From IMG/VR virus record IMGVR_UViG_2896595138_000007, positions 1 to 44,244 of that record: a stretch of 44,244 nt of DNA; one strand, given 5' to 3'. Position numbers and translations under genes: made by a program. The DNA is from a virus (taxonomy: Duplodnaviria > Heunggongvirae > Uroviricota > Caudoviricetes). Shown piece by piece: positions 33,873-35,066 of this stretch (position 1 is the stretch's first letter; each line of letters opens with the position of its first letter). The notes under the pieces were generated by a model. The model did not search any database and had not been told where the DNA came from. It worked only from the letters and a program-made list of their open reading frames with translations.

Positions 33873-34249
33873 CCGCCGTTTTCTCGTACTTACTGATAGT
33901 GATCTCGACCTTCCCTTCCGGGATAACCGGTCCCCACTCCACCAGCATTCTTTTCACCTGACTGTCGTCTTCCCACACACCCGCGTGGGTCAGGGCGTCA
34001 AACAGCGCCTTGTTATAGTTGTCCAGATCGCGGCTCCGGTTATCCGGAAGGAAACAACACGATCTCCACTGAAGCAGGTGCCGACGTTGGTTTCGGCAGA
34101 CGACGTAACTGCTCAACTATTGCTGCGCACGCCGCGCTCTGGAATTTTCGCCCCGCCGCGCTTATCAGGCTCTTACCAGCAAACGCCCCTTTGTTGGGGT
34201 GTCGCCAGTACGTGTTCACGCTGGGCGGGAAAGGCAGGATCAGCTTCAT
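33859..34249 (-). CDS. rusA: Holliday-junction resolvase RusA, apparent 1-nt frame break near 34062
   Basis: ORFs 34040..34249 and 33859..34116. MKLILPFPPSVNTYWRH... then ...LPDNRSRDLDNYNKALFDALTHAGVWEDDSQV; frames rejoin if one T of TTT is removed. Confidence 0.75.
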
Positions 34250-34605
34250 ACTTTCAGGCCTCTCTCATGTAACCAGTGAGTTGCACGCAGCCTTGCGTTT
34301 TCCTCACCGGCAAGCAGTGAGCGGATAATCCCGACCGCCTCGCTGTCGTCGTCCTTCACCGCGGTATGAAGCGTGATCCCCCGGGCCACACCACGCTTTA
34401 TCGTGATGACGCCTTTTTTCTCCAGTGCGCGAAGATGCTCCACCGCTGCATTCACTGAACGGTATCCCAGCATGGTTGCCACCTCCTGATTGGTTGGCGG
34501 AAAGCCACGTTCTTGCTGGTAAGAAATCAGCATATCCAGCACCTGCTGCTGACACTGAGTTAACGTCGTCATTAAGCCCCCACGTAATTCCCTGACAGAT
34601 ACCAT
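34246..34605 (-). CDS. LexA-like DNA-binding-domain protein without peptidase domain
   Basis: LTQCQQQVLDMLISYQQERGFPPTNQEVATMLGYRSVNAAVEHLRALEKKGVI matches the LexA N-terminal winged helix; no S24 domain follows. Start overlaps the upstream stop (TAATG). Confidence 0.6.
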   Translation of the reverse strand: MVSVRELRGGLMTTLTQCQQQVLDMLISYQQERGFPPTNQEVATMLGYRSVNAAVEHLRALEKKGVITIKRGVARGITLHTAVKDDDSEAVGIIRSLLAGEENARLRATHWLHERGLKV

Positions 34606-35066
34606 TCATCACCCGATACAGCGCGCTTGCTGCTTTTCCGTAAGCACCGCTCTCGACGCGCCAGAAAGTTGTTTCGTTCTGGCTGGGAGTGACTTTCACG
34701 GAATGCCGCCATCCACACCGTTGCAGCACGACGGTATAAGCCCCTGGACTCCAGCTCTTCAGCCTGGCGGGTCAGGCACAAAATCACCCGGGGATCGTTA
34801 GTGCCGACATAGAAATTGCGCACAGGTCTGGTTTCACGAACAGGTTGTGGTTCCAGCTCCTGCGCTCTCTCAGTCAGGCGCGGGAAATGTCTGCGTGTAT
34901 CTCCTTCACAACGGTGAGCCACACGCCCACTCTGACGTAACTTGCTTGCTGACTGCAGAACGCGCTGCCGTGAGTAACCTGCAAAAGCATCCGCAATGTC
35001 TCCGGAAGTACAGCCCGGATGGGCTTCAATGAATTTCTGAACGTCATTCAAAAGACTCATGATCAC
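34572..35066 (-). CDS. PerC/Pch-family-like transcriptional regulator
   Basis: N-terminal ...HPGCTSGDIADAF... and C-terminal ...LESRGLYRRAATVWMAAF...RRERC resemble PerC/Pch regulators; from memory only. Confidence 0.4.
   Translation of the reverse strand: MIMSLLNDVQKFIEAHPGCTSGDIADAFAGYSRQRVLQSASKLRQSGRVAHRCEGDTRRHFPRLTERAQELEPQPVRETRPVRNFYVGTNDPRVILCLTRQAEELESRGLYRRAATVWMAAFRESHSQPERNNFLARRERCLRKSSKRAVSGDEWYLSGNYVGA

Follow-up and report, generated by a model that had tools for sequence, protein, structure and literature searches.

Introduction

GIL01, a tectivirus of Bacillus thuringiensis, encodes gp6, a truncated LexA homologue that is ~44% identical to the LexA of its host (Fornelos et al. 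2018, PMC6182141). gp6 comprises the DNA-binding domain and a 14-residue C-terminal extension that forms a wing, and it activates the late promoter and controls timing, binding GaCACAnnTGTGaC at -43.5 (PMC6182141). Here we examined a 44,244-nucleotide (nt) stretch of DNA from a tailed virus (Caudoviricetes; IMG/VR record IMGVR_UViG_2896595138_000007), analyzed at its full length and hereafter called the window, to which coordinates refer. Two overlapping open reading frames (ORFs) of this stretch encode YfdN, which contains a PerC-type domain, and LexN, a short protein with a LexA-type DNA-binding domain. The closest characterized precedent of LexN is gp6: both are phage-encoded LexA DNA-binding domains without the protease, and gp6, by its published description, is an early product that acts after SOS induction. 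LexN differs from gp6 in having a further conserved tail of 35 amino acids (aa) and a recognition helix closer to the LexA of its own host, and gp6 belongs to a tectivirus of a Gram-positive host group that is unrelated to the LexN phages. Our tentative reading, to which we give somewhat less than an even chance, makes LexN a LexA-like binder of operators that is insensitive to RecA and acts in lytic growth.

YfdN also has described relatives. YfdN of Escherichia coli K-12 (CPS-53/KpLE1) and the PerC-family coding sequences of SfII, SfIV and mEp460 belong to the same family, with 93-98% identity, a length of 162-164 aa and the same place after an O-like gene, and nothing material distinguishes the window protein from them; in CPS-53 the downstream part of the block is presumably degraded. 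PerC and PchABC are small single-domain proteins of ~90-105 aa, and ANR and PerC-type modules, which are small and helical, are thought to act by binding other regulators. The PF06069 domain of YfdN is common to PerC, encoded on pEAF of enteropathogenic E. coli, and to PchA, PchB and PchC of enterohemorrhagic E. coli, which are likewise prophage-borne (PMC5931665). yfdN itself has been referred to as the K-12 homologue of perC, without a demonstrated effect on ler (PMC5931665).

Results

LexN retains the DNA-reading residues of LexA and lacks the autoprotease

The gene and its predicted parts are as follows.

34246-34572, minus strand: lexN, 108 aa, with matches to Pfam LexA_DNA_bind (E value 3.3e-19) and PHROG 362 (2.4e-59)
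34366-34572, minus strand: predicted winged helix of LexN, residues 1-69, from the AlphaFold model superposed on 3jso
34249-34350, minus strand: C-terminal tail of LexN, residues ~75-108, with two amphipathic helices predicted

LexN matched the full 65-position profile of LexA_DNA_bind (PF01726) with 68.9 bits against a cut-off of 23.7, and it was 43% identical to residues 1-86 of E. coli LexA. No S24 peptidase was matched in LexN by Pfam, the protein stops at residue 108, and its score against the lexA equivalog TIGR00498 was 70.5, below the cut-off of 110.95 and restricted to profile positions 1-91; the original prediction of a LexA DNA-binding domain without the autoprotease was thus borne out. 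In the AlphaFold model, which had a mean predicted local distance difference test score (pLDDT) of 78 and a low-confidence linker between winged helix and tail, the winged helix superposed on DNA-bound E. coli LexA (3jso) at 1.4 Å over 68 columns with 50% identity, and the range over 3jso and 1lea was 1.4-1.7 Å. LexN therefore has the N-terminal winged-helix fold of E. coli LexA, and it differs from LexA in lacking the S24 autoprotease/dimerization domain with its Ser/Lys dyad and the LexA-type dimer interface and in having a new tail. Since the protease is absent, LexN cannot respond to activated RecA (RecA*).

The residues through which E. coli LexA binds DNA are Ser39, Asn41, Ala42, Glu44 and Glu45 (PMC13416735). 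Four of these five contact residues (S39, N41, A42 and E45) are retained in LexN, which has Val at position 44. Among 14 family members S39 and N41 were invariant and A42 and E45 were mostly retained, and the mean identity to E. coli LexA reached 61% for the recognition helix and 54% for the wing but only 33-35% for helices 1 and 2. Because the contact residues are conserved, a LexA-like way of reading DNA is reasonable for LexN. We infer from these sequences that it recognizes LexA-like half-sites, and RecA-insensitive binding of SOS boxes of the form CTGT-N8-ACAG is plausible on the same grounds.

The tail was modeled as two helices (residues 75-87 and 93-103, pLDDT ~87) that have no counterpart in LexA and that appeared amphipathic by eye, in our own reading of the sequence. 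A HMMER search against 1.84 billion representatives detected short LexN relatives of 38-52% identity with the same domain and tail. The tail was kept in relatives down to 38-49% identity, with conserved columns at L86, L87, E90, N92, A93, R96, A97 and L101, and the linker was not conserved. A narrower alignment of LexN against species-representative genomes returned genuine lexA genes and, besides these, copies from Shigella and Citrobacter only. All LexN relatives examined sit on phage or prophage contigs, and with its domain match and its occurrence on such contigs only, LexN is a truncated phage LexA homologue in the sense defined for gp6 (PMC6182141). The modeled tail may stand in for the absent dimerization domain of LexA.

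The tail could also be read differently, as the sign of a protein that works mainly by protein contacts, either as a decoy or competitor in the RecA*/LexA/ClpXP pathway, through its LexA-like linker and the tail, or as a partner of the initiator or RusA. A tail that forms a conserved helical hairpin behind a flexible linker would suit such a role, as would the constant position of lexN between the initiator gene and rusA, and LexN residues 86-90 (LLAGE) align with LexA residues 82-86 (VAAGE), so that the "AGE" of the LexA cleavage region falls at LexN 88-90. However, the Gly of this "AG" pair is Asn in the Citrobacter members, the segment is modeled as the end of a helix, and phage gene order often reflects descent rather than interaction. 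The selective conservation of the DNA-contacting helix and the wing favors DNA binding, and we regard action mainly through protein contacts as improbable. LexN has no protease in cis, and the LexA-like "AGE" was also considered as a site for cleavage in trans; this is unlikely because the motif is not conserved and the segment is predicted to be helical.

lexN is the constant gene of the locus, and yfdN is optional

The second gene and the junction are located as follows.

34572-35066, minus strand: yfdN, from the ORF list, 164 aa from a GTG start, with a match to PHROG 1324 "transcriptional activator" (4.7e-78)
34570-34574, minus strand: TAATG junction of yfdN and lexN, read from the sequence

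The original prediction had described a 164-aa ORF and a 108-aa ORF overlapping by TAATG as a translationally coupled unit. The observation itself is correct, since the two ORFs, the TAATG and the two Pfam domains were all verified, PerC (PF06069) and LexA_DNA_bind both scoring above their Pfam cut-offs in the proposed profile search. The TAA of yfdN (34572-34574) and the ATG of lexN (34570-34572) have one base in common, and 5-9 nt upstream of the lexN start stands a GGGGG that resembles a Shine-Dalgarno sequence. At its own start yfdN overlaps the upstream O-like gene, whose TGA and the GTG share bases (GTGA), and an alternative ATG at 35060, 6 nt past the GTG and preceded by AGGGGG, would give a protein of 162 aa. 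The lexN stop and the rusA start overlap as ATGA, and every junction of the O-like gene, yfdN, lexN and rusA in this operon is an overlap.

The coupled unit did not survive comparison across genomes. A direct yfdN/lexN junction was present in 761 of 5426 genomes, and ~2257 genomes have at least one side of the junction. A 654-bp dam gene separates yfdN from lexN in SfII, UTI89 and most relatives, again with overlapping stops and starts. The slot between the two genes holds three unrelated methyltransferases, namely Dam of 217 aa, a 290-aa enzyme, and a 230-aa enzyme accompanied by a 75-aa ORF (loci L002 of SfII, L184, L199 and L250). It behaves as a recurrent methylase slot that is empty in the window. 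The order in 80 close loci was CII, O, yfdN, (dam), lexN, rusA, kilA-N and DUF968.

We also recovered two diverged LexN lineages (42-51% identity) on viral contigs of ~40 kb, comprising 90 loci. In these lineages rusA directly followed lexN in 87 of the 90 loci. A yfdN-like gene was found within 3 kb upstream in 70, always separated from lexN by a gap of 200-2600 nt, which methyltransferases unrelated to the SfII dam fill, and it was absent from the other 20. Among the 18 yfdN-less loci listed, no other large ORF usually lay between an O-like initiator gene and lexN, and the initiator stop abutted the lexN start in eight of them. From the adjacency of rusA and the optional presence of yfdN it follows that the constant core consists of the O-like initiator gene, lexN and rusA: lexN is the constant member between initiator and rusA in all lineages examined, and yfdN and the methyltransferase gene are optional cassettes. 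The TAATG junction of the window is a methyltransferase slot that is empty, and the coupling is incidental. An obligate YfdN-LexN pair was ruled out by the small share of direct junctions, the three methyltransferase families found in between and the loci without yfdN.

SOS-box-like sequences near lexN

We scanned the window with an SOS matrix built from 21 E. coli boxes; the boxes used for training had a median of 20.6 bits, and 200 shuffles yielded at most 19.0 bits. Two near-consensus boxes exceeded both values.

37465-37484, no strand assigned: SOS box TACTGTATGTAAAAACAGTA, 26.7 bits, inside a cI-like ORF (37256-37948, plus strand), in the part encoding the inter-domain linker
30633-30652, no strand assigned, read on the minus strand: SOS box TACTGTAAAAATAAACAGTG, 22.7 bits, at codons 4-10 of a methyltransferase ORF (29608-30660, minus strand) in the late region

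The cI box was present in SfII and in all 80 of the best cI relatives, and the SfII version, TACTGTATATAAAAACAGTA, is identical to the umuDC box of the training list. The late-region methyltransferase is a type II DNA methyltransferase (PADLOC MTase_II, 3e-151), and its box was conserved in 80 of 80 methyltransferase relatives. From their sequence and position, the cI box is possibly an operator for host LexA, LexN or both, and the methyltransferase box suggests SOS or LexN control of the phage methylase. The box-bearing cI allele was found on lexN-positive contigs in 63 of 66 cases and the box-bearing methyltransferase in 64 of 68. SfIV (L003) has a third type of box, TACTGTTCATAAATACAGTA, at 4789-4808 of its own locus, in a ~190-bp intergenic gap upstream of the KilA-N-like gp44, and a near-identical box, CACTGTTCATAAATACAGTA, occurred ~760 bp downstream of the lexN start in 9 of 80 IMG/VR lexN loci. 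This layout looks like that of a LexA-controlled antirepressor; the window has no such gap.

Several results weigh against LexN as a LexA-like operator binder. Glu44 is replaced in 14 of the 14 family members. Dimerization through the tail is pure conjecture on our part, the tail having been modeled as a monomer only. At least one SOS box was present in 46 of the 80 close lexN loci; the other 34, and ~90% of the loci of the P0128 lineage, have no strong box within 6-10 kb. A simple sigma-70 scan beside the two in-ORF boxes of the window found no consensus promoter. The co-occurrence of the box-bearing alleles with lexN may reflect lineage only, because the sampled relatives are near-identical. 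Both boxes fit the LexN hypothesis, but host LexA alone could equally explain them. Our literature search found no functional study of yfdN or of an enterobacterial phage protein with only a LexA domain. Finally, neither target nor sign is fixed by similarity, because gp6, close as it is to its host LexA, binds a different palindrome and activates.

The main rival explanation draws on this last point: LexN would be a gp6-type phage factor that binds its own palindrome at a phage promoter, activates or represses there and times middle or late genes. gp6 is the only characterized phage protein with a LexA domain alone, and it acts in this way; most lexN loci have no SOS box nearby; and, besides the universal loss of Glu44, positions 42-45 vary in P0087, P0167 and P0236. 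Set against this, S39 and N41 never vary, and no part of the protein is more LexA-like than the recognition helix, in which up to 12 of 14 positions are identical in distant members. The tightly packed operon offers few non-coding stretches for a dedicated operator, and the Q antiterminator already serves the late genes of these phages. We judge a gp6-type factor rather unlikely, though it is the strongest of the alternatives. Within the reading of LexN as a LexA-like operator binder, most loci of the diverged lineages have no SOS box within 6 kb, and the box-less lexN loci therefore indicate that phage-borne boxes are not required. The phage boxes were considered as dedicated operators of LexN, and this was not established, given the close and diverged loci that have none.

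YfdN belongs to the PerC family by profile and not by architecture

YfdN has two predicted domains.

34911-35060, minus strand: predicted N-terminal helix-turn-helix (HTH)-like domain of YfdN, residues ~1-50, containing HPGCTSGDIADAF, from the AlphaFold model
34608-34769, minus strand: PerC domain of YfdN, residues 100-153 in the 164-aa numbering, Pfam PF06069

The PerC match (E value 1.8e-9; 38.2 bits against a cut-off of 22.6) covered residues 100-153 and profile positions 5-58 of 90. Of the motifs named in the original prediction, "LESRGLYRRAATVW...RRERC" is PerC-like, whereas "HPGCTS" lies in the N-terminal domain, beyond the profile match. AlphaFold predicted N-terminal helices at residues 3-13, 19-25 and 31-44 (pLDDT 83-89), a disordered linker of ~30 residues (51-82) and, in the PerC domain, a three-helix bundle (90-105, 109-122 and 126-149; pLDDT ~94). 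The N-terminal domain showed weak similarity to a PHROG MarR family (1.2e-4), to a Ren-like PHROG (0.0099) and to NCBIfam BilQ (0.0024). A Foldseek search of the two domains against the PDB gave nothing significant, with trends toward winged HTH proteins (2znz and 5duk) for the N-terminus and toward tetratricopeptide repeat (TPR)- or MIT-like folds for the PerC domain.

NCBIfam ANR (NF033650; Aar-type AraC negative regulators) matched residues 96-142, over the PerC helices, with an E value of 3.2e-5 and 23.7 bits; this is below the cut-off of 32, so YfdN is no member of that family, whose proteins are single-domain and ~60-70 aa long, unlike the two-domain YfdN. A tblastn search of the PerC domain against 72,556 plasmids (E ≤ 1e-3) recovered only yfdN-type or unnamed "PerC family" genes and no per operon of the EAF type, the inclusion of the EAF plasmid in the set being unconfirmed. 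Likeness of YfdN to PerC was thus found at profile level only. With 162-164 aa, its own N-terminal domain and a disordered linker, YfdN departs from the single-domain architecture of PerC, and its sequence thus places it in the PerC family by profile and not by architecture.

The last residues of YfdN, WYLSGNYVGA (34575-34610), are invariant or nearly so; they are modeled as disordered and coincide in part with the GGGGG ribosome-binding site of lexN. In SfII a 1-nt deletion at the C-terminus of YfdN makes its end read ...SGITWG. Across the diverged lineages YfdN was 25-31% identical, where LexN was 42-51% and RusA 72-81% identical; by this comparison LexN and YfdN both evolve fast.

The original prediction also cast YfdN as a PerC/Pch-like virulence activator, a reading in which it would be a prophage moron switching on ler and the LEE (locus of enterocyte effacement) or other H-NS-silenced genes. 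Its PerC domain does exceed the Pfam gathering threshold, and yfdN acts as an optional cassette. However, the plasmid perC was not recovered at 1e-3, YfdN adds an N-terminal HTH-like domain and a linker to what PerC and Pch have, and yfdN lies within an early lytic operon rather than at a prophage end as a moron with its own promoter. yfdN is moreover present in about half of the complete E. coli genomes, including that of K-12, which we take to lack the LEE. Pch proteins are prophage-encoded and activate LEE1 (PMC5931665; see also PMC4764244), but PchD and PchE, members of Pch groups 2/3, behave unlike the PchABC activators (PMC5931665). A virulence activator exceeds this evidence, LEE activity not being inferable from sequence, and we consider it distinctly improbable. 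YfdN is most likely an optional accessory modulator of transcription.

YfdN follows initiators of unrelated types

The gene upstream of yfdN and its repeats are as follows.

35063-36004, minus strand: O-like initiator, 313 aa, with matches to Pfam HTH_36 (4.3e-11) and PHROG 391 "replication initiation O-like" (5.5e-135)
35632-35695, no strand assigned: 15-bp tandem repeat CAGATTTTGACGCGT, 4.3 copies (Tandem Repeats Finder, score 86)

In the O-like protein an N-terminal HTH_36 winged helix is followed by a linker rich in repeats and by a C-terminal domain with the end ...DYSQIPAGFRG. The repeats encode SKSDASKSD... peptide repeats and are probably iterons of the replication origin, a role that we assume by analogy with the lambda ori. 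Initiators with unrelated N- or C-terminal domains (window 35063-35100; L184, L199 and L250) all end in ...DYSxIPxGFRG. This terminal IPxGFRG motif is kept at the protein level with synonymous changes, even where yfdN is missing, and the stretch encoding it serves in part as the Shine-Dalgarno sequence of the following gene. In the yfdN-less diverged loci five initiators had the strict IPxGFRG, and most of the other tails listed were close variants (IPDGFRG and VPNGFRG). From this conservation, the tail may be a docking peptide.

We therefore weighed a replication accessory role, in which YfdN would be an analogue of lambda P or Ren working with the O-like initiator. yfdN lies directly after the O-like gene with overlapping stop and start, no P, DnaC or DnaB gene was seen in the operon, the N-terminal domain has the weak Ren-like exclusion protein match noted above (0.0099), the O variants share the IPxGFRG end, and the PerC domain is TPR-like. 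Overexpression of a UTI89 fragment with both the O-like gene and yfdN2 leads to filamentation, an effect described for the fragment as a whole (PMC6206680). That fragment consists of part of a Rha gene, a small ORF, the O-like gene and yfdN2, and lexN lies outside it. On the other side, YfdN follows initiators whose N- and C-terminal domains are unrelated, the predicted HTH and three-helix bundle resemble regulators rather than loaders, and yfdN does not co-occur obligately with the initiator as would be expected of a P-type partner: it is missing from the 20 diverged loci, among them the five with the strict initiator tail. Since yfdN is optional and the initiators preceding it are unrelated, we gave up a P-like partner of O as our leading idea, and we regard a replication role as very unlikely.

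The genes lie in the early operon of a lambdoid prophage

We examined the surroundings of the two genes. yfdN, lexN, rusA and the O-like gene are all on the minus strand. From upstream to downstream the order was a Cro-like HTH gene, a CII/CP76-like gene, DUF4222, the O-like initiator gene, yfdN, lexN, rusA, KilA-N, DUF968/HNH and a Q-region gene, with a divergent S24-type cI upstream of the early operon. The predicted placement in the replication/nin region was right, with the O-like initiator, rusA and Q as neighbors. The prophage is an SfII/mEp460-like lambdoid one from E. coli, and yfdN and lexN are delayed-early genes of its rightward (pR-type) operon. Gene order and names match those of a RefSeq prophage, SfII, SfIV and UTI89, and RefSeq annotators called the same two coding sequences in a near-identical prophage. 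The whole window lies inside the prophage, with the tail-fibre region at one end, the integrase at the other and no host DNA. Its nearest relatives, PhiR55_1, vB_EcoS-569R4 and mEp460, are induced, viable E. coli phages.

The gene downstream of lexN is disrupted.

33859-34249, minus strand: rusA, split into two ORFs with RusA matches by a +1 T frameshift

The extra T (TTTCCTTCC) was recognized by alignment with the TTTCC-TCC of the intact SfII rusA. rusA is also "frameshifted" in strain ST540 according to the Prokaryotic Genome Annotation Pipeline (PGAP), and a double RusA match occurred in several IMG/VR loci. This lesion in the adjacent gene of the window prophage, together with the many truncated or fused members in the databases, might suggest that yfdN, lexN or both are decaying passengers without current function. 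This explanation is scarcely credible: both ORFs are intact, both genes are present in phages isolated as viable virions, and the full-length architecture, including the LexN tail, is kept at 25-51% identity across phage lineages.

Searches of YfdN and LexN against the PADLOC-DB defense models gave noise only (YfdN, E value 0.0083; LexN, 4.7e-4, in a CARF HTH region), and membership of a defense system was dropped, nothing in PADLOC being significant. Window positions 1-1500 resemble E. coli regions annotated as tail fibre assembly protein, recombinase and "TIR domain-containing anti-phage reverse transcriptase". Judged by this similarity, the left end of the window possibly carries defense cargo beside a tail-fibre invertase.

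The genes are common and already annotated

Of 5426 complete E. coli genomes, 2701 contained the 1.3-kb yfdN-lexN block with an identity of 95-99%, and the block also occurred in 50 phage records, including SfII, SfIV, mEp460 and Stx2c-converting phages. Genome annotation of the block reads [quoted passage not shown], with lexN also given as "LexA family protein", and in phage records lexN is named "LexA DNA binding domain protein" or "transcriptional repressor". Both genes thus belong to known families and are already so annotated in thousands of records, and our domain calls repeat existing annotation.

Discussion

We propose that LexN is a LexA winged helix that has kept the residues reading CTGT, lost the autoprotease and gained a conserved helical hairpin. 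The hairpin would allow LexN to dimerize, and the dimer would occupy SOS-box-like operators without being inactivated by RecA*. Host LexA is presumed to be cleaved in lytic growth; LexN would re-impose or retime the control of SOS-box promoters at that point, because it is produced only after derepression of the prophage. Its targets might be the host SOS regulon or the phage's two boxes, one inside cI and one at the late-region methyltransferase. YfdN, with its HTH-like domain and PerC-type protein-binding bundle, would modulate transcription through protein contacts and would have no part in replication. The more specific proposal, in which LexN is a post-induction stand-in for LexA whose tail-mediated dimer re-occupies host or phage SOS boxes and so shuts down or retimes the SOS response in lytic growth, is possible but doubtful.

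As it stands, the finding is an ordinary one, and the notions of a coupled pair and of a virulence activator should not be carried forward without experiments. Were LexN such a stand-in, its presence in about half of sequenced E. coli, Stx2c phages and serotype-converting phages of Shigella among its carriers, would imply widespread phage control of mutagenesis, of rival SOS-inducible elements and of the timing of toxin phages. [quoted passage not shown] This would also be the second independent use by a phage of LexA's DNA-binding domain after GIL01 gp6, here with a new oligomerization tail.

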